Positions 9,210 to 53,105 are shown, counted from the first letter of the stretch. The stretch: 64,000 bases of DNA from Escherichia coli (GCF_965641715.1 NZ_OZ282453.1), one strand, 5' to 3'. A program made the numbers and translations. Notes: generated by a model not told the origin, from the sequence alone.

Positions 9210-9376
9210 TTTTTCTGTTCATCATCTTGCCGTGCTGCTGGCACGGCAAGACAACCATTCTCGTAAGATGTGCAATGAACGCTCATTCCTCCGCCATTTC
9301 ATCCCGCTTTCCTGTGGTAATCTTCCTCTGAACCACCTACGATCATTTCTATAATGAATATATTGTTGAGGTATCT

Positions 9377-37905: not shown

Positions 37906-39132
37906 ATGGGAATTAACGAAATCATCATGTACATCATGATGTTCTTTATGCTGATAGCTGCCGTAGACAGGATCCTGTCGCAGTTCGGCGGTTCTGCTCG
38001 TTTCCTCGGTAAGTTCGGTAAAAGTATCGAAGGATCAGGCGGTCAGTTCGAAGAAGGCTTTATGGCAATGGGCGCACTGGGCCTGGCGATGGTCGGTATG
38101 ACCGCGCTGGCACCGGTACTGGCTCACGTTCTCGGGCCGGTAATTATTCCGGTTTACGAAATGCTCGGCGCTAACCCATCGATGTTCGCCGGAACACTGC
38201 TGGCGTGCGATATGGGCGGCTTCTTCCTCGCCAAAGAGCTGGCGGGCGGCGACGTAGCCGCGTGGCTATACTCTGGGTTAATTCTCGGGTCGATGATGGG
38301 GCCAACGATTGTGTTTTCCATTCCGGTGGCGCTCGGCATTATCGAACCTTCTGACCGTCGTTATCTGGCGCTCGGCGTGCTGGCGGGCATTGTGACCATT
38401 CCGATTGGTTGTATCGCTGGTGGTCTGGTTGCTATGTACTCCGGTGTTCAGATCAACGGCCAGCCGGTGGAATTCACTTTCGCCCTGATCCTGATGAACA
38501 TGATCCCGGTGATCATTGTTGCGATTCTGGTGGCGCTGGGGCTGAAATTCATCCCAGAAAAAATGATCAACGGCTTCCAGATCTTCGCCAAATTCCTCGT
38601 TGCATTGATCACCCTCGGTCTTGCCGCTGCGGTAGTGAAATTCCTGCTTGGCTGGGAACTGATCCCCGGTCTGGATCCTATCTTTATGGCCCCTGGCGAT
38701 AAACCCGGTGAGGTGATGCGCGCCATTGAAGTTATCGGTTCTATCTCCTGCGTTCTGTTAGGGGCGTATCCGATGGTGCTGCTGCTGACCCGCTGGTTTG
38801 AAAAACCGCTGATGAGCGTCGGTAAAGTGCTGAATATGAACAACATCGCGGCAGCCGGCATGGTGGCAACGCTTGCCAACAACATCCCGATGTTCGGCAT
38901 GATGAAGCAGATGGATACCCGCGGCAAAGTCATCAACTGCGCCTTCGCCGTTTCCGCTGCTTTCGCCCTGGGCGACCACTTAGGCTTCGCCGCTGCCAAC
39001 ATGAATGCCATGATCTTCCCGATGATTGTCGGCAAGTTGATCGGCGGCGTAACGGCGATTGGCGTGGCGATGATGCTGGTGCCAAAAGACGACGCGACCG
39101 CGGCTAAAACCGAAGCGGAGGCACAATCGTGA
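37906..39132 (+). CDS. eutH: Ethanolamine permease EutH
   Basis: 408-aa polytopic membrane ORF. Confidence 0.9.
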   Translation: MGINEIIMYIMMFFMLIAAVDRILSQFGGSARFLGKFGKSIEGSGGQFEEGFMAMGALGLAMVGMTALAPVLAHVLGPVIIPVYEMLGANPSMFAGTLLACDMGGFFLAKELAGGDVAAWLYSGLILGSMMGPTIVFSIPVALGIIEPSDRRYLALGVLAGIVTIPIGCIAGGLVAMYSGVQINGQPVEFTFALILMNMIPVIIVAILVALGLKFIPEKMINGFQIFAKFLVALITLGLAAAVVKFLLGWELIPGLDPIFMAPGDKPGEVMRAIEVIGSISCVLLGAYPMVLLLTRWFEKPLMSVGKVLNMNNIAAAGMVATLANNIPMFGMMKQMDTRGKVINCAFAVSAAFALGDHLGFAAANMNAMIFPMIVGKLIGGVTAIGVAMMLVPKDDATAAKTEAEAQS

Positions 39133-40532
39133 ACACTCGCCAGCTACTGAGCGTCGGTATCGATATCGGCACCACCACCACCCAGGTGATTTTCTCCCAC
39201 CTGGAACTGGTTAACCGTGCGGCGGTGTCGCAGGTGCCGCGCTACGAATTCATCAAACGCGAAATTAGCTGGCAAAGCCCGGTGTTCTTTACCCCTGTCG
39301 ATAAACAGGGTGGTTTAAAAGAAGCGGAACTGAAATCGCTGATTTTAGAGCAATATCAGGCTGCGGGCATTGCGCCGGAAAGCGTTGATTCTGGTGCCAT
39401 CATCATCACCGGTGAAAGCGCGAAAACCCGCAATGCTCGCCCGGCGGTGATGGCGCTCTCTCAGTCGCTGGGCGATTTTGTCGTCGCCAGCGCCGGGCCG
39501 CACCTCGAATCCGTGATCGCCGGTCACGGTGCCGGGGCGCAAACCCTTTCTGAACAACGGCTGTGTCGGGTACTGAATATCGACATCGGCGGTGGCACCG
39601 CGAACTACGCCCTGTTCGATGCCGGAAAAATCAGCGGCACTGCCTGCCTCAACGTCGGTGGTCGCCTGCTGGAAACCGACAGCCAGGGGCGCGTGGTTTA
39701 CGCTCATAAACCGGGGCAGATGATTGTGGATGAGTGCTTCGGCGCAGGCACCGATGCCCGTTCGCTGACCGGCGCGCAGCTGGTGCAGGTTACCCGGCGG
39801 ATGGCAGAGCTGATTGTCGAAGTGATTGACGGAACGCTTTCGCCGCTCGCGCAGGCATTAATGCAAACCGGTTTGCTGCCCGCAGGTGTTACGCCCGAAA
39901 TCATTACGCTTTCTGGCGGCGTGGGCGAATGTTATCGCCACCAGCCCGCCGACCCGTTCTGTTTTGCCGATATTGGCCCGCTTCTGGCAACGGCGCTGCA
40001 TGACCATCCGCGCCTGCGTGAGATGAACGTGCAGTTTCCGGCGCAAACCGTGCGCGCCACGGTGATTGGTGCGGGTGCACATACCCTTTCGCTCTCTGGC
40101 AGCACAATCTGGCTGGAGGGCGTACAACTGCCGCTGCGCAATTTGCCGGTGGCGATCCCAATTGATGAAACGGATCTGGTGGGTGCCTGGCAACAGGCGC
40201 TGATTCAGCTGGATCTTGATCCCAAAACTGACGCGTACGTGCTGGCGCTTCCCGCCTCGCTGCCTGTGCGTTACGCCGCGGTACTGACGGTCATCAACGC
40301 GTTGGTCGATTTCGTCGCGCGTTTTCCGAATCCGAATCCCCTGCTGGTGGTGGCCGGGCAGGACTTTGGTAAAGCTCTGGGCATGTTGTTGCGCCCACAG
40401 CTACAACAACTCCCGTTGGCAGTCATTGACGAAGTGATTGTCCGCGCGGGGGACTATATCGACATTGGTACGCCTCTTTTTGGCGGATCGGTTGTGCCGG
40501 TGACGGTGAAATCACTCGCATTTCCTTCCTGA
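39129..40532 (+). CDS. eutA: Ethanolamine ammonia-lyase reactivase EutA
   Basis: 467-aa ORF. 4-bp overlap with eutH. Its last 19 bp (40514..40532) coincide with the attL repeat of the inserted element. Confidence 0.9.
   Translation: MNTRQLLSVGIDIGTTTTQVIFSHLELVNRAAVSQVPRYEFIKREISWQSPVFFTPVDKQGGLKEAELKSLILEQYQAAGIAPESVDSGAIIITGESAKTRNARPAVMALSQSLGDFVVASAGPHLESVIAGHGAGAQTLSEQRLCRVLNIDIGGGTANYALFDAGKISGTACLNVGGRLLETDSQGRVVYAHKPGQMIVDECFGAGTDARSLTGAQLVQVTRRMAELIVEVIDGTLSPLAQALMQTGLLPAGVTPEIITLSGGVGECYRHQPADPFCFADIGPLLATALHDHPRLREMNVQFPAQTVRATVIGAGAHTLSLSGSTIWLEGVQLPLRNLPVAIPIDETDLVGAWQQALIQLDLDPKTDAYVLALPASLPVRYAAVLTVINALVDFVARFPNPNPLLVVAGQDFGKALGMLLRPQLQQLPLAVIDEVIVRAGDYIDIGTPLFGGSVVPVTVKSLAFPS
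40514..40532. repeat. attL-like direct repeat (ACTCGCATTTCCTTCCTGA), forming the present 3' end of eutA
   Basis: 13/19 identity, including the identical core CTTCCTGA, with attR at 51714..51732. Confidence 0.6.
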
Positions 40533-40627
40533 ATACTGTAGTTATCAGGCGTGGCGCTGGGTGGCTGGGTGTTAGTGGGATTATATCCGGCTGTGTATCC
40601 GGTCGGGGTGATTGGTCTGTATAGCAG

Positions 40628-40652
40628 AAAACCCGGCGCGGGGCCGGGTGAA
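40628..40652 (-). terminator. Rho-independent terminator after the element's 186-aa cargo gene
   Basis: Minus-strand RNA ACCCGGCcccgcGCCGGGTtttctg. The same hairpin recurs at 42316..42340. Confidence 0.6.
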
Positions 40653-40655
40653 CTA

Positions 40656-41216
40656 TCACTCAGGGAACAAGTTGATTTGAAGCAAACTGCCAATGTATTT
40701 ACCAGTGCTTTTAATTTTTCGCTTTGATGGCTTACACGAATTCAGGTTGACACCAGCCTGGCTAGATATTGGCTTGTATTGCCGCTCCGCCAGTACGATC
40801 AGGTCTGCCGCGTCTTTTAGCTTTCCATCGTTAGCCAGTTCCAATGCTCGATCCGCCATTTGCCCGCATTGTTGAATCAGCTTAAGTTGCGATACCTCCA
40901 GTCGCAATTGCTGGATTCGTTCTACCACTTTCGCCCTAATGCGCTTAGTTTCACGCATTCCCATTCTTAATGCCTGGTTGCCAGTAAGTGAGTAAACCTC
41001 TTTTTCTTTCCTGAAGTTTGCGGCTTTACCGTCAGCTTGGACGCGCATTTTATGCGCTTCCAAGAATTCGCCCTCCAATTCATCCCTGATCTTCGCGTTG
41101 AATCTGTCGTTCTTGAGTTCATTTAACCCTTCCGCCTTGCGGATCTGGTTGATTAACTCCAACAATTCATCACTGCGGATACGCCACTCGCTATCAACCT
41201 GTACCAAGTCAAACAT
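40656..41216 (-). CDS. Hypothetical coiled-coil protein (cargo gene A of the element)
   Basis: ORF 40656..41309. The internal start MFDLVQVDSEWRIRSDELLELINQ at 41216 has a GGGAG SD 5 nt upstream and is used here. No recognisable catalytic motif. Its 3' end abuts the attL side. Confidence 0.5.
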   Translation of the reverse strand: MFDLVQVDSEWRIRSDELLELINQIRKAEGLNELKNDRFNAKIRDELEGEFLEAHKMRVQADGKAANFRKEKEVYSLTGNQALRMGMRETKRIRAKVVERIQQLRLEVSQLKLIQQCGQMADRALELANDGKLKDAADLIVLAERQYKPISSQAGVNLNSCKPSKRKIKSTGKYIGSLLQINLFPE

Positions 41217-41380
41217 GTTGTTGCTCCCGTTTTGCTGCCATAGGGCAACGGCTCGCCAGCCTTTATCACCTCCTTTAGTTGTTGCGATTCTTAACTGAAT
41301 GGTTATCAAAACGCTGCGTTAATATCATTGATATGTATCAAATTTGTTTTGTGACGCGACAATGCCTTGTGAATATCAAT

Positions 41381-41410
41381 AAAAAACCCAGCGCTATGGC
41401 TGGGCTTCGT
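41381..41410 (-). terminator. Rho-independent terminator after the HTH regulator gene
   Basis: Minus-strand RNA GCCCAGCcataGCGCTGGGtttttt. Stop codon at 41438. Confidence 0.65.
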
Positions 41411-41413
41411 TTA

Positions 41414-41451
41414 ATGAGATGGGATTGAAAGCGGGTTTTATTTATCTCCCA
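41414..41451. promoter_or_regulatory. Operator-like site O1 (ATGAGATGGGA ... ATCTCCCA) upstream of cargo gene A
   Basis: Contains the reverse complement of the 11-mer TCCCATCTCAT found in O2, plus an ATCTCCCA half-site. Confidence 0.4.
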
Positions 41452-42220
41452 GATTGTATTCCCAGTTGGGAAGTAAAGTTATCAGCTTGTCACCTTTCTT
41501 GCCTTTGCCGATCTGGTTGCCGTTCTCGTCTTTCTTGTGTGTGATTTCCTGGTCAACCTTAATCAATCCTCTCTCTTTGGCTTGCTCAATCAGTCGGTAG
41601 AATGCGCCGTTACTAATCGGCTTCCGGTTACCGTCGTTATCCATCGCAGTGATTTTCTGTTGCAGTCCGGCGTTATTGCCCAGGTATTCGCCACCTAACG
41701 CCGCCAGTACCTGACACAACATGCCGACACTGTATTTTTTCGGATTTGGGTTAATCCATTCTTTAGCTCCCATCTCTTTTTTGTCGTTGGGCGCTTGTTC
41801 TGCTGCTACTGCGTTCACCTTTTCATCTCCCATCTTGTTACCGCTTGCTGTGCGCTTAATTTCTTCCAGTTCTCTCTCAAGCTCACCTATACGTAATTCA
41901 CGCTCGATAATTACCCCGCGCAGCACATCATCATCACCGTGAGGGCTTGCCTGAATCCAGTTACCATTGGCGAGCGGTAGGAGGGCATAAATTCCGAACA
42001 GGTCACAAAGCGCGGCAAGTGTATTAAAATCAGGTTCCCGGCGTCCCTCCATCCAGTGGCTAACAGCGCCTTTTGTGACTGGTTCGCCTTTCTTGCTTTT
42101 AACACCCATGCGATCCAGTGCGGCGGCTATCTCTTCGCATTTAATGCCACGACCGCCAGCATAGCCCGCCGCTTTCGCGGCCCCTTTGAGGATGTCGTGA
42201 ATTTTCATTTCGTAACTCAT
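41438..42220 (-). CDS. XRE-family helix-turn-helix transcriptional regulator with a ~190-aa C-terminal domain of unknown function (cargo gene B)
   Basis: ORF 41438..42235. Probable start MSYEMKIHDILKGAAKAAGYAGGRGIKCEEIAAALD... with GGAGA 7 nt upstream. The N-terminal 70 aa have the Cro/C1 HTH pattern. Confidence 0.6.
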   Translation of the reverse strand: MSYEMKIHDILKGAAKAAGYAGGRGIKCEEIAAALDRMGVKSKKGEPVTKGAVSHWMEGRREPDFNTLAALCDLFGIYALLPLANGNWIQASPHGDDDVLRGVIIERELRIGELERELEEIKRTASGNKMGDEKVNAVAAEQAPNDKKEMGAKEWINPNPKKYSVGMLCQVLAALGGEYLGNNAGLQQKITAMDNDGNRKPISNGAFYRLIEQAKERGLIKVDQEITHKKDENGNQIGKGKKGDKLITLLPNWEYNLGDK

Positions 42221-42226
42221 AATTTT

Positions 42227-42257
42227 ATCTCCCATCTCATGAACTATGGTGGGAGAT
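42227..42257. promoter_or_regulatory. Operator O2: perfect inverted repeat ATCTCCCA-N15-TGGGAGAT overlapping the SD and start of the HTH regulator gene
   Basis: Seen directly. A near-identical IR sits at 42935..42965 and a related site at 41414..41451. Probable autoregulatory site. Confidence 0.5.
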
Positions 42258-42315
42258 TAACACGGCGGGCCTGTGGCGGGTAAGTGTAACGGGAGAGAAT
42301 GTTGATTCAGGTCAC

Positions 42316-42340
42316 AAAAACCCGGCGCGGGGCCGGGCTG
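42316..42340 (-). terminator. Rho-independent terminator after the membrane-anchored cargo gene C
   Basis: Minus-strand RNA AGCCCGGCcccgcGCCGGGtttttgtg. Near-identical to the hairpin at 40628. Confidence 0.6.
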
Positions 42341-42359
42341 TGTTAGTACGTCGTTGCTC

Positions 42360-42836
42360 TTAGTTCATGAGGAGATCTTTAAATTCGACGCCGTATTCAT
42401 GGGCAATGTCGCCTCTATAGTAGATGTTATCTTTCAGGATATATCCGACGTTTCTCAGGACGTGAGAACACTCTCTTACTGCTGCCTCTTTACCCCTTAA
42501 AACATCCTCCCCGCTAACTTCTTCGCCGCTGTACTTCACTGCGATGTTGTCTGCTGCACGCTCTGCTGCTTCCAGGCAATTAATCTTCACTTTTCCCCGA
42601 TTCTCCCAGGCAAAATCGCGGCCATAAATCCCCATTGCATCAACCATCTTTTGCGCAGTAGTGCGCTCATCCACCCATTCAGTGCGTTCGAACTTCTCGC
42701 CAGCAGCTACCCTTGCCGCCAGTTGTTCGTGTTGAGTCTGTACGGCCGCAGCCTCTTCTTCCCATTTGCCTTGCTCGTTGTATACGATGAAGCCAGTGAT
42801 GACTGCAGCGATTAGTAACTTGTCCAGAAAATTCAT
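42360..42836 (-). CDS. Hypothetical protein with a single N-terminal transmembrane helix (cargo gene C)
   Basis: 158 aa, MNFLDKLLIAAVITGFIVYNEQ then a soluble Glu/Ala-rich domain. SD-like sequence upstream. No family recognised. Confidence 0.5.
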   Translation of the reverse strand: MNFLDKLLIAAVITGFIVYNEQGKWEEEAAAVQTQHEQLAARVAAGEKFERTEWVDERTTAQKMVDAMGIYGRDFAWENRGKVKINCLEAAERAADNIAVKYSGEEVSGEDVLRGKEAAVRECSHVLRNVGYILKDNIYYRGDIAHEYGVEFKDLLMN

Positions 42837-42934
42837 AGCTTCCTCCTATCTGTTCAATTACCCGGCATCTCTTGCCGTTGAACGTATTAAACAAAATGCC
42901 AGTCAGGGATAAAGCGATCTGCGTCATAAAGTCC

Positions 42935-42965
42935 ATCCCCCATCTCATTGATATTGATGGGAGAT
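42935..42965. promoter_or_regulatory. Operator O3: inverted repeat ATCCCCCA-N15-TGGGAGAT about 100 bp upstream of cargo gene C
   Basis: Same half-sites and same spacer start (TCTCAT) as O2. Confidence 0.45.
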
Positions 42966-43056
42966 TGTTTAATTGGTCAGAAATTAAGCGTTTATGTGCG
43001 CTGCCGGGTATCCACCTCCTATCTGAAGATGGAAAGATGGGTGATATAATGTGATG

Positions 43057-43120
43057 GCAATTGGTGGATTGCGTGGTTTTTACAATGATAAGGGGCTGGC
43101 GTAATGCTGGCCCCTTTGTT
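43057..43120 (+). ncRNA. Candidate small RNA (extended -10 promoter to plus-strand-specific terminator)
   Basis: TGaTATAAT at 43042..43050. Hairpin GGGGCUGGC-guaau-GCUGGCCCC + UUUGUUU at 43091..43120 pairs, with two G-U wobbles, only in the plus-strand transcript. No convincing ORF. Confidence 0.25.
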
Positions 43121-43170
43121 TATCCGGTATCCGGTATCCGGTATAAGCGGGCGTGTATCCGGTAGCGGGG
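43121..43170. repeat. Tandem heptamer repeat (CCGGTAT x3.5) followed by GTGTATCCGGTAGCGGGG
   Basis: Seen directly. A related GTGTATCCGGTCGGGG lies at 40593..40608 near attL. Confidence 0.6.
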
Positions 43171-43356
43171 ATATGGGCGCGTGTACGTGAAATCTGGCAA
43201 ATTAGCAGGGTAATTGTGAGGGAATTTTTGCGTAGGAGCGTTTGTGGCTGGTAGCTCAAAATTGAGCTTTGCTTTTCATTCAATGACTTAGGTTAATTCT
43301 AGCAAAACGCTAGGATTGAATGTCCGCCAGTCTGCTTCCCCTAGCGTGGGATTTGG

Positions 43357-45723
43357 TCAACGTCTGCGCGGCTGCAAAATTCCTCCGGGTCGTTGTGATT
43401 CACGCTGCATCAGTCGCATCGCTGTGTTTTCTATGGTCTGCTGCAGCGCTTTTGAGTCTTCCTCTGTCCAGCCGTTGTTAGCCTGGATGTTGAACGTATT
43501 GTTCATCGTGATTCCGCCACCGCCTACCAGATCGCGGCCCGGTGTAACTCGTCCACCTTCACCCGGGATCATGTACTGTTTCCCGCCAGTGGATGTAAAT
43601 AGCTCCGGTACTCCGTGCTCCCCGACCCTATAAAGATTGCCACCGTTAACAGCCCCGCCGTTGTAACGAGCGCCAGCCAGTCCAAGCGTTTTGGCGGCAG
43701 CTACGCCAGTAGTAAGCCCGGTAAGTCCAGTGGCCCCAGCGCCGCCCATCGTGGCTACGTTAGCCAGGTATGCAGGAGTGGCCCACGCCGATCCTAATGC
43801 TGTAGCCTCTGCTAGTGCTTTAGCTGTTGCGGCTGCGTTTGCGGCTTCACCAATTAGCTGCTGTTTAACCCACTCAGCACCCATCTGGACAATGCCACCG
43901 ACCACAGAAGACAGGATCGTACTGCCAACGTTGGCAAGTGACTCTTGCAGCGATTGAGTACCGTTTATCAGTCCGGTAAATGCGCTGCCAGCGCCAGACG
44001 ATAACCCATCGACCATATTCCCGATGAGGCCATTTATATCGCTTTGTTTCTTCCACTGCTGCCACTGGAGATCCAGAACCCTTTGTTCATGTGCGATCTC
44101 TTCCTGGCGCAACTGCTCTTCGGTAGCCCCAAGATCTAGAAGCATTTGCTTGCGAACAGCCCATTCATTTTGGATCTTCTGTATTGGGTCAATCTGAGCT
44201 TTCTGCTTATCCTGCTCACTGACAAGACTGTCCCATTTCGCTTTCTGCTTGCGGATGGCTTCAGCTTCATCAATTGCTGCGAGTGTACTTGCTCGCTGTT
44301 TCGCGCTGATCAACCGTTTCTGCTCAGCCGCTTCCAGGTCTTCTACTGCTTTTTTCCGTTTATTGAGCGCCGCTAGTTCGGGATCGTATTTTTCCACCAA
44401 TGAAAGGCCGCTTGCTTCCTTACGTTCGCGTTCTCTTTGTGCCTGTTTGGCTGCCTGCTTAGCGGCGTTTTCTGCTTGTTTGGCTGCTCTTTCTTTCGCC
44501 CTGGTGTTCTCTTCTTCCTTGCGCTTATTCTCTTCTAACTCCTTGTTTTGTTCGCGTAATTTAACGATTTCCTCATGATGCGCCTTTGTCAGCTGGCCTT
44601 CTTTCAGTGCCCGATCTATATCAGCGTTTGCGTTGCCTTTTAGCTGTTCCTGTTTAACTTGCAGATGTTTAATCATCATTTCGCCAGTGGCAATCGCTGC
44701 CGCAGACGCTCCAGCATTCAGAGCTTCATTTAACGCTCTCTGACGTTCTTCTGCTGTTAATGCCTCGTTGCTGTATCGAAGTAGCGCATCAACGTATTTC
44801 TCCAGTTCTGCGCGGCCTGCCGCAGTTGCTGGTTCCATTGCTTTTAGGATGCTCAGAAGGCTTTGCGCTTCATAGGAAGACGGGTTTTTGCGGAACTGCG
44901 CCATAGCGTTATAAAGCGCCATAGCTTCACCCTCTGTGATTCTGTACTTAGCTCCCAGCCCTTCAATGACCGCTGATAACTGTTTGCCAAGCGCTGCACC
45001 GAATGCGCCTTCCTTGCTTAATTTGTTGAGCACTTCACTCAGTGAATTTCCTGACACGCCCAGCGCGTCGAGTTCTCTTGCTACCGTTCCCAGGTCGCCG
45101 CCTTTCATCCATCCTGCATTAGAAAATTCAGTGATAGCCCGGCCCGCTTCCCGCGTTTCTTCCTGGAGTGTTTTTAGCGCCCGCACGGCCTGCTCTTTCA
45201 TTACGGCGGCGGCAATGGCGTTGTTCTGTGTGGCTTCGTAATATGAATCACTGAAAGCGTTAACGCCCTGGGTGGATTTGCCGATCACGGCGTCGATTGA
45301 TGCTAATGCCTCCTTCATCCTTTCAGCGCTATCCGTTGCGTCGTCCATGCTGTCCGTTAGGCTGTTGGCAATCGCCCCGCCAATAGCCATCACCGCCCCC
45401 ATGACCGCACCGCCAGTACCGAAGGCAGCGGCAAGTTGTGCACCCTGCACAGCGAACGCCTGGAGCGCATTACCGCCCATCTGCAATTGAGTGGCAAGGT
45501 CTGCGATCTGGTATGATGCGTTACGGATTGCCGGGGAAAGGTTGGTTTTGACTGCGGCAGACGTTTTGGTCATCTGCGTGTTCAGTTTTTTGACGCCACT
45601 GTCAGCGCGTTTTGCGCCGCGTTCTATACTGTCAAAAGCCTGGTCCGCTTCTTGTTGTGCTGCCAGGAGTTTACCAGTACGGGCGTCGACCTCATAGTAT
45701 ATGGTCCCAAGATTCCCACTCAT
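43357..45723 (-). CDS. Tape-measure-like large coiled-coil protein (lambda-H-type C-terminal region), orphan
   Basis: 788 aa with an Ala/Glu/Lys/Gln-rich heptad-like central region (EENKRKEEENTRAKERAAKQAENAAKQ...). Gly-rich C-terminus with LYRVGEHGVPELF, the 'VGExGPELF' signature recalled for lambda-family tape-measure C-terminal domains. No neighbouring tail genes. Confidence 0.6.
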   Translation of the reverse strand: MSGNLGTIYYEVDARTGKLLAAQQEADQAFDSIERGAKRADSGVKKLNTQMTKTSAAVKTNLSPAIRNASYQIADLATQLQMGGNALQAFAVQGAQLAAAFGTGGAVMGAVMAIGGAIANSLTDSMDDATDSAERMKEALASIDAVIGKSTQGVNAFSDSYYEATQNNAIAAAVMKEQAVRALKTLQEETREAGRAITEFSNAGWMKGGDLGTVARELDALGVSGNSLSEVLNKLSKEGAFGAALGKQLSAVIEGLGAKYRITEGEAMALYNAMAQFRKNPSSYEAQSLLSILKAMEPATAAGRAELEKYVDALLRYSNEALTAEERQRALNEALNAGASAAAIATGEMMIKHLQVKQEQLKGNANADIDRALKEGQLTKAHHEEIVKLREQNKELEENKRKEEENTRAKERAAKQAENAAKQAAKQAQRERERKEASGLSLVEKYDPELAALNKRKKAVEDLEAAEQKRLISAKQRASTLAAIDEAEAIRKQKAKWDSLVSEQDKQKAQIDPIQKIQNEWAVRKQMLLDLGATEEQLRQEEIAHEQRVLDLQWQQWKKQSDINGLIGNMVDGLSSGAGSAFTGLINGTQSLQESLANVGSTILSSVVGGIVQMGAEWVKQQLIGEAANAAATAKALAEATALGSAWATPAYLANVATMGGAGATGLTGLTTGVAAAKTLGLAGARYNGGAVNGGNLYRVGEHGVPELFTSTGGKQYMIPGEGGRVTPGRDLVGGGGITMNNTFNIQANNGWTEEDSKALQQTIENTAMRLMQRESQRPGGILQPRRR

Positions 45724-46012
45724 AATATCTTTATCCGCGTTGTGCGGACACCTCCGATTATTCTTTACTCTAATAATTTCACAATGAAACAGTTTATTGC
45801 CGCTTCAGTGGCTTCGTGTTCCGGTTTGCTTCGATCAATCACAAAAAATACAGCTTAATAGAATCAATGGCTTATAAAGTTGTATTAGCTATGTTTCTTC
45901 GTCCGTGCCACTGAAAACCCAGTTTTTCCAATGGAATCAATACTGATATGTATCCATACTGTTTTTCACATAATGTACGTTATGCGCACTACGGGAAACG
46001 TACTGAATTTAT

Positions 46013-46243
46013 TTACTGGTCGCCGTTCAGTTCATGCAGAGTCTGTTCTGGCAATGAATCCAGCCAGTTTTCTGCATCCTCCCTGTAACACTCCAGGATG
46101 CAACGGTTTGTGAAGTTGATGAAAGCGGTCAGTGATTCTGCTTCGTCGTTCCTGTGCGTTCTCCTGGCGTGCTTGCGTAGTCGTTTCGCGTCTGCCAGTT
46201 GGTCATTGAGTATCTTCAGTCTGTCGGCAATATCATCGTTCAT
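46013..46243 (-). CDS. Hypothetical small protein (76 aa)
   Basis: ORF co-oriented with the element's genes. 290-bp non-coding gap before the tape-measure-like gene. No motif recognised. Confidence 0.35.
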   Translation of the reverse strand: MNDDIADRLKILNDQLADAKRLRKHARRTHRNDEAESLTAFINFTNRCILECYREDAENWLDSLPEQTLHELNGDQ

Positions 46244-46430
46244 GTCGTCTCTCCCTCGCGCGCGCGTCGTACTTGTCCGAAAATTACCCCCATAAAAGCG
46301 CCCCTCATATAGTGCAAAATCCCGGCTGACGCGGATCTCAGTGGGTTTTAGCAGTGAAAACTGACATCAAAAACGGCTCGCTAAGGTCCGCTAAGTATCC
46401 GCTATCGTTCGCTAACCCCCCGCTAACCTA

Positions 46431-46796
46431 TTAGATATCGCATCCAACGCTATTGAGCTGGCTATGTATATCGGCGCGAATTAACTTCAGGCGTTTACAA
46501 AATTCGCGTTCTTCCGAATTAAGCTCGCGGCCACCTTGTTTCGAGGCAATGAGCTTGTTGATGGTGGAAAGCGAATATTCACTCCATATACGAAGCATTT
46601 GTCGCTTCATTGGTTGCTCGCTCAATGGTGAGTTTTTCAGGTCTGACACGCGCTCTGCGACGGTTCTTGCGATGCCTTGTACCACTCGTAGTGCCAACAT
46701 GATGATTTTCTCCGGACTTGTGCTAATATAGTTCCCGAACATTGTTTCGAGACTGCTTATCCTGTTTGTCTTGTCCGATTTGTTCATTGGTCGCAT
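46431..46796 (-). CDS. Hypothetical protein (121 aa)
   Basis: Co-oriented ORF in the compact gene array 46431..47993. No family recognised. Confidence 0.45.
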   Translation of the reverse strand: MRPMNKSDKTNRISSLETMFGNYISTSPEKIIMLALRVVQGIARTVAERVSDLKNSPLSEQPMKRQMLRIWSEYSLSTINKLIASKQGGRELNSEEREFCKRLKLIRADIHSQLNSVGCDI

Positions 46797-46838
46797 TGTT
46801 AAGTCAGCCGGGGTAATTCCCGGCTTTCTTTTATCCGA

Positions 46839-47381
46839 TCAGTACCGAATCCCTATCGCATTGAATACGCGTTTCCGTTGCTCAGCTTCAGGATCGGCGG
46901 CCATTTCTGGTTCTGGCTCCGGCATAGACGGGGCGGCATCAAAATGCTCAATTTCACGACCGAAATACGAGTTCAGGTCAATACCTGCCGAACTATCCAC
47001 TCCATCAAAATAGCGACGCTGTTCCTCGGTGAGACAGCTACCCAGACGTTCCTCAACCTGCGCCATAAACTCAGCATCCGGTGAGAAGTACTCATCCGGA
47101 GTCGGAGCACCGCTCTGTTTGTGCATCTCCATTTTCTCTGCGTTCGTTTTCAGCCCGGCAATGCGTTTCTCCAGTCCGGCGGCTTTAATAGCGTCAGCAA
47201 CGATTTGTGGGATCTGCGGTTTAATTATTTCGATAACTTCATTGCTGATTAATTTAAACTGGGCCATACGGATCGCTTTAATCTGCTTATTTAACAGTGC
47301 GCGTTCCCCTTCGTTGGCGGTTTTATCACGCTGTGCTACCAGTTCATCGCCTTTGTTTGTCAGTACATCAAATGCGTCCAT
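46839..47381 (-). CDS. Hypothetical phage-like protein (180 aa, acidic C-terminus)
   Basis: Co-oriented ORF. C-terminus PEPEPEMAADPEAEQ. Possible packaging or scaffold-type function, assigned by position only. Confidence 0.45.
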   Translation of the reverse strand: MDAFDVLTNKGDELVAQRDKTANEGERALLNKQIKAIRMAQFKLISNEVIEIIKPQIPQIVADAIKAAGLEKRIAGLKTNAEKMEMHKQSGAPTPDEYFSPDAEFMAQVEERLGSCLTEEQRRYFDGVDSSAGIDLNSYFGREIEHFDAAPSMPEPEPEMAADPEAEQRKRVFNAIGIRY

Positions 47382-47398
47382 TGTCTTTCCTCCTCCGA

Positions 47399-47725
47399 TT
47401 ATTTAAAAGTGCTTATTGACACGCCGAAACGACGACTTAATTCAAAAAGGAGTCGCGCCTTTGCAGTGCCTTCCATGTCTTCCGGCATTTCAGACTGAAG
47501 TTTATCAGCTACTTCATCAACAAGTGGCCGAACCGTTTCCACGAACTTGTCCGCAATATAATCAGCAGAACGCATCACTTTTTCCTGGAATTCCTCACGG
47601 CGTACCTGGGCGGCTGATTTAGGGGCTGTCGTGCGCTGAAAATAACTGTCTAATGAATGCATGGCATCTGCTCCTTTTACTTTGATTGCTGTTATTTCTT
47701 TAATTGTGTTTGCTTTGATTTTCAT
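47399..47725 (-). CDS. Hypothetical protein with a C-terminal HTH-like segment (108 aa)
   Basis: C-terminal ...AKARLLFELSRRFGVSISTFK resembles a DNA-binding helix-turn-helix. Confidence 0.4.
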   Translation of the reverse strand: MKIKANTIKEITAIKVKGADAMHSLDSYFQRTTAPKSAAQVRREEFQEKVMRSADYIADKFVETVRPLVDEVADKLQSEMPEDMEGTAKARLLFELSRRFGVSISTFK

Positions 47726-47801
47726 GCTGCCTATTCCTTCAGAAATTGCGGTAGTTTGCTTTTTAAATCAATAAGTTATTTGATAATCTCAGTAGCTGTT
47801 T

Positions 47802-47993
47802 TCATTGGTGGCGAGCGCCTTTGTTTTTATAGAATTCCAAAATCTCAGATCGGATAAACTTAATTCTTGAGCCAATCGGACTGACCGGGACGGGCCAGCC
47901 TTTAATCTTGTTCATCCACCGGAATATTGTCCGACGGGTAACGCCGAATAAAGCTGCTACCTCGTTAACCGTCATTAATTCGCTATCATTCAT
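47802..47993 (-). CDS. alpA: AlpA-family prophage transcriptional regulator / excisionase-like protein
   Basis: 63 aa, MTVNEVAALFGVTRRTIFRWMNKIKGWPVPVSPIGSRIKFIRSEILEF, the classic AlpA (MerR-type wHTH) pattern found next to P4-type integrases. Confidence 0.75.
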   Translation of the reverse strand: MNDSELMTVNEVAALFGVTRRTIFRWMNKIKGWPVPVSPIGSRIKFIRSEILEFYKNKGARHQ

Positions 47994-49116
47994 GTTCTCA
48001 CCTCAAAAAGTAGCGGTGAGGAAAATATGGAGAAAACCCTCACCGCGCCCTGAATGAAATTAAAGACCAACATTACTGTTGATACTTATTATTATATTCC
48101 TCCTGTCCCTGTTTCACATCTTTTACCATATAGTGAAAGGGGATATTCTGTAATGTTTACAAAACTTTTAATTAGCAAAAAATAATTGCGCATCTCACGT
48201 AATGCAGGGATAATATTACTCAAGGGCTGGTTGCCCTTACTCAAAATGTGATCTATAACTACAACGATCTATTTCACTTCCCCGCTTTCTCCGGCGGGAT
48301 TTTTTTGCCTGCAATCTGGCACCATTGCGCACATTAAAATTAGATGCCATTTAAAAGCGATATAACGCGTTCTGCCGGGCTTAATTTTGGCTATCCACTT
48401 GGAAGGGTAAGCCTGTTTTGATTCGTCTGGCGTGGAATGGTGCGGCGGTAATATCAGATCTCAGCGTTCTGCGTGGTGGGATGAAATAGCCTGGCAGGAT
48501 TTGCGTGTGGTTTGCTCTCCCAAAAAATGGGGTAATGGCGCTGGCTGGATGGCAGGACTCCGCGCTGATTACTGGATGGCTGAAAATTTAATGAAATCGC
48601 ATCAATTTTAATGCGTCTAAATCGCTCTGTGGCGACGTGAAGTTTTCAGGTAAGCAAGTGTAGCTGTGTGGTGTGTTCATCGCGTTACTGGCACCATTCC
48701 GTTCGAATTTGGCGCTATCAGGATGGTTTGCGGTGGTCGGCGGCGGGGATAAACTTGCTTGAGTGGTCACCTCAGCCTGCTGTGCGTCGTGTGATGGTAC
48801 TGTCTGCACCTGGCTATACGCTGCTTTGCTGCTGTTTCCTGTCTGGTCTGTATACGCGATAAAACCCATCGGCTTTACAGTGAGTGAGTTTTTTGCGCTT
48901 TGCTTTCCATTCGGTTTGCTTACTGCTGCTGTGTGTCTGTGCGGTAGCTCAGAAAGCTGTCGATGATAACCATCACTGCCAGACCGTCTTTTGAGCTGGC
49001 GATTGCTCGAAGTCTTCCGAAGGTCCGCTGGGCTTGTTGCTTGTTTGTGTTCTTTTAAAATGCGCGCCTCTTACTTTCTCTTAAAAAGAAAAAAGGAATA
49101 TACAGATCTCATACTA

Positions 49117-49274
49117 TGTGTGTCCCAAATGTCACACGTCATGGCCTGACCTGTATCCCAAATGTCACACGTCACCCTCTGACCTGTATCCCAAATGTCA
49201 CACGTACCTGTGTCCCAAATGTCACACGTCTATTGTTAATTAATTGTTGACCTGTGTCTCAAATGTCACACGTC
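49117..49274. repeat. Iteron array: 5 direct copies of ~22-bp CTGT(G/A)TCCCAAATGTCACACGTC with an AT-rich tract (49231..49250) before the last copy; putative replication origin
   Basis: Copies start near 49119, 49151, 49186, 49208 and 49252. Directly downstream of the Rep-like gene. Confidence 0.75.
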
Positions 49275-49338
49275 TGTTGATGGTTTAAGTAATAAAAAGG
49301 GCCACCATTTTAGGTGACCCATTGATGCGTTTTAGTCG

Positions 49339-50103
49339 TTATCTTGCGTTCTCGACCTGAAAAAGCATTCTGTATTTTCTTGCGTGCTGACCAATAACAT
49401 ATTCCCCGTATGGCTCAATGAGTCCTAACTCAACCAGGATTTTCATCTGGCGAATTACGGTGCGGCGATTCATGCCCCATTCATCAGCTATTTTTGCCTG
49501 GCAAACTTCAGATACATAAGATCCATCATTCTGCTTTCTTGCTGCTGATGCAATGCTGGATAATACGCTCCAGGCTGTAGCTTTAGCTTTATTCTCGCAA
49601 CCACTTCTGACAAATGCCTTACGTGCCGCACCCAAACAGACATAACTGCAATAAATTCCTTTTTCTTCCGTTTGGTATTGTGTCTCTTTATCCTGCATGG
49701 CTTCCGGTTCTTCCGGCGCTTCCTGCTGTGGTGCTGTCTGCGAAGTTTTAGCGGCCATACTGCGTAGCTCGTTCACGATATCAGTAGCTGATTTCTTCTC
49801 GCTTTTAGTTTCCTGCGTGACTGATAAATACTCACCTTGTAACGCCAGGAAGTCAGCGCGGGCGTTTGCCTGGCTTTGTTCTGGTGATTCAGGTTCTGCA
49901 TCGGCAGGTGATGAAATCGGTGATACACGCGCCCAGCCTGTTTTGGCGTTGCATTCCCAGCGATAACCATTAAAGCGGATATCATTCAGGCCATCATCAA
50001 TGGCGCTCCGTACTTCTTCCGGGATCGCGTCGATTTTCTGAAGGCTGTGTTTACCGAGTGATTCGCCTTGCCGTGGGGCGTAGGCGGTTGGTAAAATATT
50101 CAT
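49339..50103 (-). CDS. Putative replication initiator / iteron-binding protein with a C-terminal winged-HTH
   Basis: 254 aa. C-terminal ...KIADEWGMNRRTVIRQMKILVELGLIEPYGEYV is a wHTH. Adjacent to the iterons. Acidic low-complexity middle region. Confidence 0.55.
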   Translation of the reverse strand: MNILPTAYAPRQGESLGKHSLQKIDAIPEEVRSAIDDGLNDIRFNGYRWECNAKTGWARVSPISSPADAEPESPEQSQANARADFLALQGEYLSVTQETKSEKKSATDIVNELRSMAAKTSQTAPQQEAPEEPEAMQDKETQYQTEEKGIYCSYVCLGAARKAFVRSGCENKAKATAWSVLSSIASAARKQNDGSYVSEVCQAKIADEWGMNRRTVIRQMKILVELGLIEPYGEYVIGQHARKYRMLFQVENAR

Positions 50104-50349
50104 GTGGGATTTCTCCTTTTTACTTGTTTCCCATATCGCCCGGATTGGTTAGCGGCCTTCCGGGCTTTTTGTTGCGTTGATCCTATTTTCGATCCCCGGA
50201 TTTTTTATTACAAACTTGGCTTAATCATTGATTTTATTGGTATAGCTGTATAAAAGGATAACAGGATAAAAGGGTGATAGATTGTGTAACCTGTTAACCT
50301 TTTATACCAGTAAGGCGAAAGAAAAGCCGGACGAATCCGGCCTTATAGT

Positions 50350-51555
50350 TCACGGCTCCAGCGGATTACCGCCACCAGCCAATATCTGGTCGATGGCGTC
50401 GCTGTAGTCCTGCATCATGGCCCGCCGTTGCTTCAGATAGGCCGCCTGGTTATAAACGCCGCGCACACCTTTCGGAACGTGGGCCAGTTGGATTTCGATC
50501 CAGTCTGGTGAGTATCTGCCGTACTCGTTAAGTGCGGTTGAAAAGGTGGTTCGCCAGCCGTGACCAGTGGCTATCGACTTGTATCCGATACGCTCCAGGG
50601 CTTTAAGGATGGCACTGGCTGAAAGTGGCTTATCCATGAATCGACCAGGGAACACAAAAGCACTGTATCCGCTGCGGGTAAACTGGTCCTGTAATAGCTC
50701 GACCGCCTGCCGGGATAGCGGGACCACATGCGGGCGGCGGGCCTTCATGACTTCAGCGGGTAGGGTGATGGTTGCCGATTCCAGATCTACCCACTCCCAG
50801 CGCATTAAACGCAGTTCTGCGGTCCTTAGGGCGCTTAATATAAGCAAACGTATTGCCGTCTGAATCTGAACGCTCCCGGCTCTCTCAAGGGCTTTGTAGA
50901 AGGCCGGGATTTCGTTAATTTGTATCCATGCGTTATGGCCTGGGCGTCGGGCTTTCAATGCCGTGTCCAGATCTGCAACCGGATTTCGGTTAACCAGTTC
51001 AGTGATAACGGCAAATTTGAAGATTTCCCCTATACGCTGCCGTAATTTTCGGGCCTGTTCCGGCGCGGTGCGCTCTTTCTTCTGAAGCAATGCCAGCACG
51101 TCACGGGCCGTTATATCGACAATCGACCGCTTGCCAAGTACCGGATAAACATCTTTCTCCAGTGCCGATCTAACTTGTTTCGTGTAAGACTCAGACCAAC
51201 CGCTCACTCTGGTAGCAAACCAGTCTTCCGCTACCGTCTTAAAACTTGCCGCCATGTTGAGCGCATCAATGGCTTTCTCCTTGCGCGCTTCTTCCATTGG
51301 GTCAATTCCCTGGGCGATGAGTAAACGGCTCTCTGTGGCGCGTTTACGTGCTTCCTTCAAGGTAATCAGCGGATATACCCCAATAGCCTGTAACCGCTCT
51401 TTCTTGTCTATCCAGTACCGGAATCGCCAGTATTTGCTGCCATTGGGATGTACCAGCAAGAACAGGCCAGGTGTCTGTGAATCGGTGAGTTTGTAGGGCT
51501 TGTCCTTCGGCTGGGCGGCCTCTATGCCCTTTGCTGTCAGTGGTGTCTTGCTCAA
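50350..51555 (-). CDS. intZ: Tyrosine recombinase/integrase, P4 family (IntZ-like)
   Basis: 401 aa. N-terminal arm-binding region MSKTPLTAKGIEAAQPKDKPYKLTDSQTPGLFLLVHPNGSKYWRFRY and C-terminal catalytic region with ...HGWRTTFSTALNE...LAHV...Y. Adjacent to eutB as intZ is in K-12. Confidence 0.85.
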   Translation of the reverse strand: MSKTPLTAKGIEAAQPKDKPYKLTDSQTPGLFLLVHPNGSKYWRFRYWIDKKERLQAIGVYPLITLKEARKRATESRLLIAQGIDPMEEARKEKAIDALNMAASFKTVAEDWFATRVSGWSESYTKQVRSALEKDVYPVLGKRSIVDITARDVLALLQKKERTAPEQARKLRQRIGEIFKFAVITELVNRNPVADLDTALKARRPGHNAWIQINEIPAFYKALERAGSVQIQTAIRLLILSALRTAELRLMRWEWVDLESATITLPAEVMKARRPHVVPLSRQAVELLQDQFTRSGYSAFVFPGRFMDKPLSASAILKALERIGYKSIATGHGWRTTFSTALNEYGRYSPDWIEIQLAHVPKGVRGVYNQAAYLKQRRAMMQDYSDAIDQILAGGGNPLEP

Positions 51556-51713
51556 AACCGGATACCTCGATCTAACGACTCGATAACCCCGCTCATGTAT
51601 CCGTCGCGTTCGGTTGCGTTCGGCAGGATAAGTAACGGGCGTATTAAGTGGAACACCTTACAGGACAAGGGATAACGATGAAATAGAATTGTTCGAATGC
51701 TGTGAAAAATGTT

Positions 51714-51732
51714 ACTCATCACTTCTTCCTGA
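51714..51732. repeat. attR-like direct repeat (ACTCATCACTTCTTCCTGA), remnant of the ancestral eutA 3' end directly upstream of the eutB RBS
   Basis: Partner of 40514..40532. 130 bp downstream of the integrase gene. Confidence 0.6.
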
Positions 51733-51743
51733 GGGAACGACTT

Positions 51744-53105
51744 ATGAAACTAAAGACCACATTGTTCGGCAATGTATATCAGTTTAAGGATGTAAAAGAG
51801 GTGCTGGCTAAAGCCAACGAACTGCGTTCGGGGGATGTGCTGGCGGGCGTCGCAGCGGCAAGCTCACAGGAGCGCGTGGCGGCAAAGCAGGTGTTGTCGG
51901 AAATGACCGTAGCGGACATCCGCAATAATCCGGTGATTGCCTATGAAGATGACTGCGTGACGCGGCTGATTCAGGACGATGTTAACGAAACGGCCTACAA
52001 CCAGATTAAAAACTGGAGCATCAGCGAACTGCGTGAGTATGTGCTGAGCGATGAAACCAGCGTGGACGACATTGCCTTTACCCGCAAAGGGCTGACCTCG
52101 GAAGTGGTCGCGGCGGTAGCGAAGATTTGCTCCAACGCGGACCTGATCTACGGCGCGAAGAAAATGCCGGTAATCAAAAAGGCCAATACCACCATCGGTA
52201 TTCCGGGCACCTTTAGCGCCCGTTTGCAGCCAAATGACACCCGTGACGACGTGCAAAGTATCGCCGCGCAAATCTACGAAGGGCTTTCCTTCGGGGTGGG
52301 CGATGCGGTGATCGGCGTCAACCCGGTAACTGACGATGTGGAAAACTTAAGCCGCGTGCTGGATACCATTTATGGCGTGATCGACAAATTCAACATCCCA
52401 ACTCAGGGCTGCGTACTGGCGCACGTCACCACCCAGATCGAAGCGATTCGTCGCGGCGCGCCTGGCGGACTGATTTTCCAGAGTATCTGTGGCAGCGAAA
52501 AAGGGCTGAAAGAGTTTGGCGTGGAACTGGCGATGCTCGACGAAGCGCGCGCAGTGGGCGCAGAGTTCAACCGTATCGCCGGGGAAAACTGCCTCTACTT
52601 CGAAACCGGACAAGGCTCTGCGCTATCCGCTGGCGCTAACTTCGGCGCTGACCAGGTGACGATGGAAGCACGTAACTATGGGCTGGCGCGTCATTACGAT
52701 CCGTTTATCGTCAACACCGTGGTCGGTTTTATTGGGCCGGAGTATCTCTACAACGACCGCCAGATTATCCGTGCTGGCTTAGAAGATCACTTTATGGGCA
52801 AGCTGAGCGGCATCTCTATGGGCTGTGACTGCTGTTACACCAACCACGCTGACGCTGACCAGAACCTCAACGAAAACCTGATGATCCTGCTCGCCACCGC
52901 AGGCTGCAACTACATCATGGGGATGCCGTTGGGCGATGACATCATGCTCAACTACCAGACCACCGCCTTCCACGACACTGCCACTGTGCGTCAGTTACTC
53001 AACCTGCGCCCGTCACCGGAGTTTGAACGCTGGCTGGAAAGCATGGGCATTATGGCAAACGGTCGCCTGACCAAACGGGCGGGCGATCCGTCACTGTTCT
53101 TCTGA
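51744..53105 (+). CDS. eutB: Ethanolamine ammonia-lyase large subunit EutB
   Basis: ORF 51702..53105 (GTG-initiated frame). Start MKLKTTLFGNVYQFKDV with SD GAGGGAA gives 453 aa. Confidence 0.9.
   Translation: MKLKTTLFGNVYQFKDVKEVLAKANELRSGDVLAGVAAASSQERVAAKQVLSEMTVADIRNNPVIAYEDDCVTRLIQDDVNETAYNQIKNWSISELREYVLSDETSVDDIAFTRKGLTSEVVAAVAKICSNADLIYGAKKMPVIKKANTTIGIPGTFSARLQPNDTRDDVQSIAAQIYEGLSFGVGDAVIGVNPVTDDVENLSRVLDTIYGVIDKFNIPTQGCVLAHVTTQIEAIRRGAPGGLIFQSICGSEKGLKEFGVELAMLDEARAVGAEFNRIAGENCLYFETGQGSALSAGANFGADQVTMEARNYGLARHYDPFIVNTVVGFIGPEYLYNDRQIIRAGLEDHFMGKLSGISMGCDCCYTNHADADQNLNENLMILLATAGCNYIMGMPLGDDIMLNYQTTAFHDTATVRQLLNLRPSPEFERWLESMGIMANGRLTKRAGDPSLFF

Follow-up and report, generated by a model that had tools for sequence, protein, structure and literature searches.

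We analyzed a 64,000-nt stretch of Escherichia coli DNA (NZ_OZ282453.1; hereafter the window, with all positions counted from its first letter) and found that the interval at 40533-43060 is the int-distal end of an integrative element of the CPZ-55 family, approximately 11.2 kb long and inserted between eutA and eutB in the eut operon. The interval carries three genes on the minus strand, termed here A, B and C, of which B belongs to the YffS family, together with a set of inverted repeats (dyads) that lie within and around B. In one relative the motif of these sites and the C-terminal domain of B have changed together, and the repeats very probably act in cis as functional elements tied to B; we put at about one half (0.5) the probability that YffS binds these dyads and autoregulates from a CRP-dependent promoter. 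An earlier note on this DNA, made without database searches, had regarded A, B and C as a single cargo module in which one helix-turn-helix (HTH) protein controls an operator shared by all three genes. Our analysis established instead that they are three independent cassettes: B is part of the conserved core of this element family, and C and A are exchangeable, moron-like cargo in two slots (slot 1 and slot 2, respectively) that flank it.

The dyad family has the consensus YTCCCA-N15/16-TGGGAG, and its members in the window are read on the minus strand, which is the gene strand. Two of them, named O2 and O3, had been reported in the earlier note at exactly the positions at which we find them. 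O2 (42227-42257) is a perfect dyad, ATCTCCCA-N15-TGGGAGAT, whose 5' arm overlaps the predicted -10 element of B and whose 3' arm is the Shine-Dalgarno (SD) sequence of B. O3 (42935-42965) reads ATCTCCCA-N15-TGGGGGAT on the gene strand and can also be written ATCCCCCA-N15-TGGGAGAT. Both are real and far above chance: the window contains five exact copies of ATCTCCCA, all within 41444-42965; three of the four exact copies of CCCATCTCAT fall within the module; and a relaxed dyad scan returned eight sites in the window, six of them within 41444-43045, compared with zero to five per whole 64 kb in shuffled windows. O3 is followed by an SD sequence and an ATG, but the reading frame that they open is broken in relatives, and a conserved small peptide at this place was rejected as a candidate.

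The inverted repeat said to precede each gene is present upstream of C and at B but not in the leader of A, where we found no dyad of this type; in addition, four further dyads had been missed. The first, site a (ATCACCCA-N16-TAGGAGGT; 43014-43045), overlaps a -10 element (TATCAC, 43041-43046) at the head of a conserved regulatory region. Two others lie within the DNA that codes for an interdomain linker of B: int1 (41825-41856, N16), which is degenerate and weak in the window (AGCGCACA...TGGGAGAT), and int2 (AGCGCCCA-N15-TGGGAGCT; 41765-41795), which is perfect in the relatives L004 and L017 (AGCTCCCA/TGGGAGCT) and reads AACGCCCA/TGGGAGTT in L001. The last coincides with the C-terminal codons of B (ACTTCCCA-N15-TGGGAGAT; 41444-41474). 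The six dyads of the window extend over approximately 1.6 kb, and the set of K-12 spans approximately 2 kb. Among the relatives, which we refer to by locus labels, L001 is strain H9Ecoli, L003 is K-12, L015 is an element at the yeiH site, and L008 to L010 lie in the ychJ/purU-narG region.

The same ordered dyad positions recur in K-12, L015, L008, L017 and the window. The full set comprises seven sites. Three of them (a, b and c) fall in the conserved regulatory region that precedes slot 1; the others are O2, int1 and int2 in linker-coding DNA, and one at the last codons of yffS. In the window, site b corresponds to O3 and site c is replaced by the C cassette; int1 is better kept in K-12, L015 and L017. 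The most telling point in favor of a protein reader, as far as aligned sequences can indicate, is the concerted change seen in the divergent relative L027. All seven sites are kept there, and their 3'-arm motif has changed together from GATGGGAG to GATGGAG, which occurs exactly seven times on the gene strand of this 9.8-kb sequence, solely at the seven homologous positions. The resulting site type is CTCCA-N15-TGGAG, with exact (C/T)TCCA 5' arms and N15 kept at a, b, c and int2, and, as we read the sequences, with one mismatch or wobble in the arms of int1 and of the C-terminal site. At the coding sites of L027 the amino acids and the codon frame differ (EMGA to AMER within the gene, and LGDK to ADGE before the stop codon, this last counterpart being in another codon frame), which indicates that the nucleotide motif is what is conserved. 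A common trans-acting reader would account for such a concerted change, and independent hairpins would not.

The identity of this reader is suggested by the L027 protein, P0045. Its N-terminal domain is close to that of P0025, the L008 protein, whose sites are of the TGGGAG type, but its C-terminal domain is only ~45-48% identical and its sites have diverged, so that the site type tracks the C-terminal domain. The dyad reader is therefore likely to be the C-terminal winged helix of YffS and not its XRE-type HTH. The assumption that one HTH protein controls the repeats thus fits in that the dyad is very probably linked to B, but it probably names the wrong domain.

Gene B (41438-42235) encodes a protein of 265 amino acids; its RefSeq relatives, named "protein YffS", start at the second ATG (42220), which gives 260 amino acids. 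In the AlphaFold2 (AF2) model the protein is laid out as an HTH domain (residues 10-96), a coiled coil (102-132), a disordered linker (131-163) and a winged helix (165-265), and this model would be consistent with a dimeric protein with two DNA-binding domains. The N-terminal domain matched Pfam HTH_31 (20.7 bits) and HTH_3 (18.6 bits), both below the gathering cut-offs, and its model (predicted local distance difference test, pLDDT, about 90) superposes on the DNA-binding domain of ImmR from ICEBs1 (TM 0.81, rmsd 1.2), in agreement with the HTH assigned to B in the earlier note. In the C-terminal domain the model shows a winged-helix fold whose beta wing is long; this domain has no Pfam match, and its closest folds are PadR, Pex and F93 (E 3.5e-3 or weaker). 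Fold searches of PDB and BFVD with B returned only generic HTH and winged-helix matches, with E above 1e-3.

Among 18 family members the C-terminal domain is almost invariant and the N-terminal domain is variable. A search of 1.84 billion representative proteins with the C-terminal domain retrieved only its own family and P0045 (48% identical); among GTDB species representatives it was found only in E. coli, and neither IMG/VR nor the phage collection contained a match. The YffS family is essentially confined to Escherichia, and a literature search found nothing functional published on yffS. This uncharacterised K-12 gene gains a testable function, as a putative dual-domain DNA-binding regulator with a site consensus, approximately seven mapped sites and a predicted CRP-dependent promoter, and the practical importance of the finding is moderate given the narrowness of the family.

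The predicted promoter of B (42254-42283, minus strand) consists of an extended -10 element (TGTTAATCT, 42254-42262) and a -35 element (TTACCC, 42278-42283), with a putative transcription start near 42247, approximately 25 nt ahead of the ATG at 42220. Right after the upstream terminator lies a CRP-type site (TGTGA-CCTGAA-TCAAC; 42301-42316, minus strand), centred at approximately -61.5 from the putative start. In 12 of 12 distinct relatives the centre of the CRP site (TGTGA-N6-TCAAY) lies 49-50 nt upstream of a TGTTAAYNT extended -10, a spacing that would put CRP near -61.5, the class I position, and the transcription start inside the O2 spacer. As in class I CRP promoters of the lac type, CRP would act from about -61.5 on a promoter with a weak -35; in contrast with them, the downstream half-site is imperfect. 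The orthologous site of K-12 (ttTGTGAtctgcgTCAATatt) is bound by CRP in vitro with a dissociation constant (Kd) of 1.4 nM (Footprint-seq preprint, PMC12871828), and genomic SELEX (systematic evolution of ligands by exponential enrichment) with the RpoD holoenzyme gave K-12 peaks in the yffR-yffS and yffP-yffQ spacers, the yffP-yffQ promoter being assigned as CTCACA-16-TATCAC (PMC3946193). An activator site of the P2 Ogr type (TGT-N12-ACA) upstream of B was inspected by eye and rejected, as it is not conserved.

In the mechanism that we propose, CRP would activate the yffS promoter, and YffS, dimerised through its coiled coil, would read the six or seven dyads with its winged helix. Bound to O2, it would occlude its own promoter and leader from the -10 element to the SD sequence, and bound to site a it would occlude the promoter that heads the slot-1 regulatory region, while the internal and 3' sites would favor cooperative assembly. 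The outcome would be a small repressor complex that regulates itself negatively and damps the adjacent slot-1 cargo, here C. The N-terminal HTH, which varies, may recognise different DNA in different lineages or serve as a sensor. The concerted change of seven sites, of which three are in coding sequence, together with one protein domain represents a clean natural experiment in the co-evolution of a protein and its operators, and it shows that constraints acting at the DNA level shape the disordered linker of YffS.

Several observations weigh against this mechanism. The argument from concerted change rests on one divergent lineage, in which the 5' arm of O2 (CTTTCA) misfits the new half-site; the N15 spacing, with ~21 bp between centres, is rather wide if a simple winged-helix dimer is to bind; and a promoter scan found no consensus sigma-70 promoter on the gene strand in the window. 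In addition, every 3' arm resembles an SD sequence (GGGAG(G)), and those of b, c and O2 stand 5-8 nt before a start codon. Arm position 3 is occupied 13 times by T.G and once by C.A, and the complementarity of the arms is weakly above that of shuffled sequences (p about 0.03, with sites that are not independent), both of which favor base pairing on the sense strand.

These last features are those expected if the dyads were RNA elements, in which an anti-SD mimic (ACCUCCCA) pairs with a strong SD sequence (UGGGAGGU) and throttles translation, YffS binding to other DNA. The 3' arm, as GGGAG(G/A)T, precedes further genes of L005 at the same distance, the 5' arm resembles the anti-SD of 16S rRNA, the hairpin is present in every minimum-free-energy fold, arm positions 1/8 and 2/7 are filled by differing Watson-Crick pairs, and the mismatch of O3 is a G.U pair on the sense strand only. 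The predicted stability is nevertheless modest (z -0.4 to -2.4), with two K-12 sites no better than shuffles, and three sites lie inside or at the end of the coding sequence of B, with no gene there to regulate. Moreover, transcription from the promoters that CRP geometry and RpoD SELEX support at O2 and site a would begin within the loop, so that the 5' arm would not be part of the mRNA, and the hairpin gives no reason for seven independent sites to lose one G/C together in L027. We therefore consider a purely RNA-level role rather unlikely, although hairpin formation and YffS binding are not mutually exclusive.

The position of int1 and int2 allows another explanation, namely that YffS and the dyads serve the element as its origin of replication or as a locus for its maintenance. 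In phage lambda, the palindromic binding sites of the O protein lie in the part of its gene that encodes the flexible interdomain linker. YffS is alike in that two dyads are embedded in the DNA for its own disordered linker and the others flank the gene; protein and sites are passed on together as a unit, no primase or helicase gene for replication is recognisable in the element, and the N-terminal domain of DnaD and a viral replication initiator are among the weak fold matches. YffS is, however, not similar to lambda O in sequence, those fold matches are generic winged helices with E above 1e-3, and the two internal sites, 60 bp apart, form no tight iteron cluster and adjoin no AT-rich unwinding region. 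Most of the sites coincide with promoters and ribosome-binding sites, and another candidate initiator, a 254-aa HTH_36 protein, is encoded next to int. On this evidence an origin is very improbable.

Regulation by YffS through the dyads would instead resemble the dispersed-operator autoregulation of ImmR of ICEBs1, 186 CI and P1 C1. YffS is like these proteins in its N-terminal XRE-type HTH, in the overlap of a dyad with its own -10 element and ribosome-binding site, and in having sites hundreds of bp away that could support cooperativity. It differs from them in its second domain, an orphan winged helix predicted to bind DNA in place of a protease-sensitive or oligomerisation domain, and in that yffS has no divergent partner, is located at the end of the element far from int, and has sites inside its own coding sequence. 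The earlier note had also argued that this is not the layout of a lysogeny switch, and we agree. All genes of the element are co-oriented, B is the last or next-to-last gene at approximately 9 kb from int, and its winged-helix C-terminal domain is neither an S24 peptidase nor a CI-type oligomerisation domain, in contrast with a CI/Cro switch.

The independence of the three cassettes is evident from their distribution. Among 5,426 complete E. coli genomes, DNA for the YffS C-terminal domain is present in 248, A in 24 and C in 12, and the three occur together at 80% coverage or more in a single genome (OW1E2, 88% identity over the interval). The yffS cassette is kept over its whole length between the two terminators in elements at eut, ychJ and yeiH, three different chromosomal sites, in the order terminator, CRP site, weak -35 and extended -10, O2 with the ribosome-binding site, yffS, 3' motif, terminator. 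The claim that each gene is followed by its own strong terminator was borne out, since folding against shuffled sequences confirmed three minus-strand terminators (-16 to -20.6 kcal/mol, z -2.8 to -3.4). The terminator after A (40631-40649) is a family-typical hairpin, CCCGGCCCCGCGCCGGG, followed by a T run (-16.2 kcal/mol, z -3.1). The one after B (41383-41408) has diverged from the family hairpin (-20.6 kcal/mol for the 3' untranslated region (UTR) segment, z -3.4), of which L004 carries the undiverged form. The conserved yffS cassette is bounded upstream by the terminator after C (42320-42337; -16.9 kcal/mol, z -2.8), whose hairpin (42321-42337) is identical to that at 40631-40647. The hairpin copies are conserved cassette boundaries and may also be recombination junctions.

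Both slots vary among related elements. Slot 1, upstream of yffS, holds yffQ and yffR in K-12, a resolvase with small genes in other relatives, and in L001 (8664-10370) an AIPR/AbiU-like abortive-infection gene (PADLOC AbiU, E 3.6e-32) with adjoining insertion sequence remnants; in L008, a protein encoded in the equivalent slot has a weak similarity to the exclusion protein Cor (E 6e-4). Slot 2 is empty in K-12, L008 and L015, in which the terminator after yffS is followed directly by the element end. In the window, L001, L004 and L017 it contains gene A with a common leader, between two copies of the terminator hairpin, and in ATCC 8739 it contains a different gene behind the same leader. A and C are thus present or absent among related elements, each with its own terminator, as is characteristic of morons. 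The arrangement is like that of lambdoid morons and the hotspots of P4-like elements and phage-inducible chromosomal islands (PICI) in its single genes with their own terminators, present or absent in a fixed slot near the element end, and in the one Abi gene. Unlike in those systems, the slots flank a conserved regulator cassette and are delimited by copies of one terminator hairpin, and the promoters of A and C are at most candidates.

A small hydrophobic open reading frame (ORF) is found in K-12 behind dyad site c (L003 8499-8561; MKRWEVALLVMVMLVCCIEL, 20 aa) and ends approximately 10 nt before the gene at the yffQ position. It is unannotated in the K-12 record, has homologs in L015, L008, L005 (where it is 40 aa long) and L027, and is missing from the window, where the C cassette takes its place. 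It could encode a small membrane or toxin-like peptide.

Gene C (42360-42836, minus strand) is an orphan of 158 amino acids with an N-terminal hydrophobic segment. Its relatives form only three protein clusters, all from E. coli, and we found no match in Pfam, PHROG, PADLOC, PDB or the phage collection. The single transmembrane helix ascribed to it in the earlier note is plausible, in that the N-terminal stretch is hydrophobic (Kyte-Doolittle 2.08), but this stretch is only ~15 residues long. Structure prediction, which resolved B into an HTH and a winged helix, gave for C a single-sequence AF2 model that is unusable (pLDDT 44). A candidate promoter of C (42886-42928, minus strand) has a -10 element TTTAAT (42886-42891), a predicted start near 42879 and, centred at about -41.5, a degenerate CRP-like site (TATGA-CGCAGA-TCGCT, 42913-42928), which may be functional in the window; its K-12 ortholog upstream of yffQ (ttTGTGAtgcagaTCGCTttt) is bound by CRP in vitro (Kd 2.3 nM; Footprint-seq preprint, PMC12871828). 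It is conceivable that C is a membrane-anchored protein of the exclusion type.

These cargo genes bear on the proposal that A, B and C form a single cargo module, gated by a regulator, that acts in defence or exclusion or as a toxin. The interval is indeed at the accessory end of an integrative element, with genes insulated by terminators, as the earlier note recognised, and the AbiU/AIPR-like gene in the same slot of H9Ecoli, the Cor-like protein of L008 and the hydrophobic anchor of C would agree with a defensive role. None of the three proteins, however, had a match in PADLOC-DB 2.0 even at E 0.1, a threshold at which the AIPR protein of L001 served as positive control (AbiU, 3.6e-32), and NCBIfam gave nothing useful, nor did a PDB sequence search give any match for A, B or C. 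The trio occurs in one genome against 248 for B, B is kept beside quite different neighbors (yffQ/yffR, a resolvase), the leader of A has no dyad, and A is Ant-like. A joint defence module is accordingly quite unlikely; the co-occurrence data speak against A-B-C as a unit and identify B as a core gene in place of cargo.

Gene A (40656-41216, minus strand) encodes 186 amino acids from its ATG, within an ORF that reaches 41309 from a TTG. The earlier note had found no assignable motif in any of the three proteins, which is true of C and of the C-terminal domain of B, both orphans, but not of A, which has an Ant1-like N-terminal region and a helical C-terminus. A is 37% identical over 117 aa to residues 116-227 of phage P1 Ant1 (E 2e-15 pairwise; tblastn E 3e-9 to 6e-9) and matches PHROG anti-repressor families (E 1e-5). 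The matched segment of Ant1 lies just N-terminal of its KilAC/ANT domain (PF03374, residues 234-336), a domain that a Pfam search did not find in A. A thus shares Ant1 homology with the P1 immI system (c4, icd, ant1/ant2), but the element has no KilAC, no c4-like RNA and no icd; a search of Rfam with 40400-51800 returned no known RNA family at E of 1 or less, antisense RNAs of the c4/CI type included. Since it is Ant-like, a role of A as a regulator or antirepressor is more probable than one as an effector of defence. P4 epsilon acts on a helper prophage, and by analogy A might perhaps be directed at a resident helper prophage.

The AT-rich slot-2 leader (41217-41382, minus strand) contains the palindromes ATATCATTGATAT and TTGATA-CA-TATCAA and ends in AAGGAGGTGATA. 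It is identical in the window, L001, L004 and L017, and ATCC 8739 matches it up to AAGGAGGTGATA, after which a different gene follows. We found nothing convincing as a promoter for A. The leader motif ATTGATAT recurs in the O3 spacer.

The sequence that had been taken as the operator of A, O1 (41414-41451), was rejected as such. On the gene strand it is everted (TGGGAGAT-N18-ATCCCATCTCAT), spans the stop codon of B and lies upstream of the B terminator; it also follows yffS in K-12, L008 and L015, all of which are without gene A. As it is kept in relatives that do not have A, O1 belongs to the 3' end of B. Part of it, the 3'-UTR motif ATCCCATCTCAT (41414-41425, minus strand), shows complementarity to the ATGAGATGGGA of the O2 and O3 ribosome-binding sites. 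Taken as AUCCCAUCUCAU, the motif is complementary over 10-11 nt to AUGAGAUGGG(A) at 42229-42240 and 42937-42948, and the motif with its complementary O2 and O3 regions has the layout of the seed of a small RNA derived from a 3' UTR. Most E. coli relatives have kept the motif; L004, L017 and L015 carry altered versions, and L027 and the L005 group have none.

Regarding the host element, it is flanked on the left by eutH (37906-39132) and eutA (39129-40532) and on the right by eutB (from near 51745). This insertion site is shared with the K-12 cryptic prophage CPZ-55, whose final gene is yffS. One copy of the att core, CTTCCTGA, can be read directly from the DNA at the eutA stop (40525-40532, plus strand), and the second copy of this 8-bp repeat (51725-51732) adjoins int and eutB. 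All genes of the element are encoded by the minus strand. A tyrosine integrase of the IntZ type (50350-51555), with the domains Arm-DNA-bind_3, Phage_int_M and Phage_integrase, is followed by the HTH_36 gene, which is a further candidate initiator, and by the gene for a 63-aa Xis/AlpA-like protein (HTH_17, E 7e-9; PHROG excisionase, 1.7e-9; Phage_AlpA model below threshold). Several small ORFs come next, then a tape-measure-like gene of 788 codons (43357-45723; phrog_1538, E 8e-112; Pfam TMP_2 below threshold), and finally C, B and A. The tape-measure-like gene stands alone, as this 11-kb element has no other tail, head or lysis genes; versions of 726-729 aa occupy the same position in ATCC 8739, OW1E2, L008 and L017.

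Other genes occur in the relatives. A small-terminase-like protein of the Sf6 type is encoded by many of them, including K-12 (YffO; L003 7112-7528, PF20901, E 2.6e-9), L005, L014, L015, L017 and L027, and some also encode HNH endonucleases, a peptidyl-prolyl isomerase-like protein or a resolvase. The gene content suggests that the "cryptic prophages" of the CPZ-55 type are phage-satellite-like elements. In common with phage satellites (PICI, P4-like elements and phage-inducible chromosomal minimalist islands, PICMI), the element has an integrase and an AlpA/Xis-like gene in less than 20 kb of co-oriented genes. Profile searches recognised no primase, helicase or TerS among its genes, the small-terminase-like and HNH genes being those of relatives. 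Our literature search found no paper linking CPZ-55 with satellites. It is possible, if on balance doubtful, that YffS and its dyad array are the self-contained immunity or maintenance control core of an unrecognised family of Escherichia phage satellites that includes CPZ-55, with an integrase, an AlpA-like gene, small-terminase-like, HNH and tape-measure genes and two cargo hotspots, in which the winged helix of YffS would co-evolve with sites in its own coding sequence. The CPZ-55-type elements appear modular, and possibly satellite-like, with two exchangeable cargo slots at their end, one of which carries an Abi gene in a relative.

Finally, we examined the CCGGATA motifs of the element. 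A pair of them, 12 bp apart, lies at 40580-40612 (minus strand). The terminal pair was considered as a YffS site (TATCCGG/CCGGATA) and rejected. Every eut-site element carries it at the end next to eutA, and it recurs close to int, at both ends of these elements; it is missing from the end of the L015 element, which indicates that these are probably IntZ arm-type sites. A region at 43088-43175 (minus strand) with a hairpin (43090-43116) and four internal CCGGATA motifs resembles the terminal arm and is also found in L008 and L015. The internal cluster (43117-43175) is 77% identical to 40582-40612; its counterparts are at 6233-6433 in L008 and at ~4670-4720 in L015, whose element end is without these motifs. 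This cluster could be a relic of the fusion of tandem elements or an extra binding site. In L008 to L010 (~8700-9411), the YffS cassette, terminator, arm sites and an att-core-like sequence (TATTCAGGAAGG) are fused directly to the middle of a homolog of the 254-aa HTH_36 gene, an arrangement resembling a secondary-site copy of the element in deleted tandem or circular-junction form.

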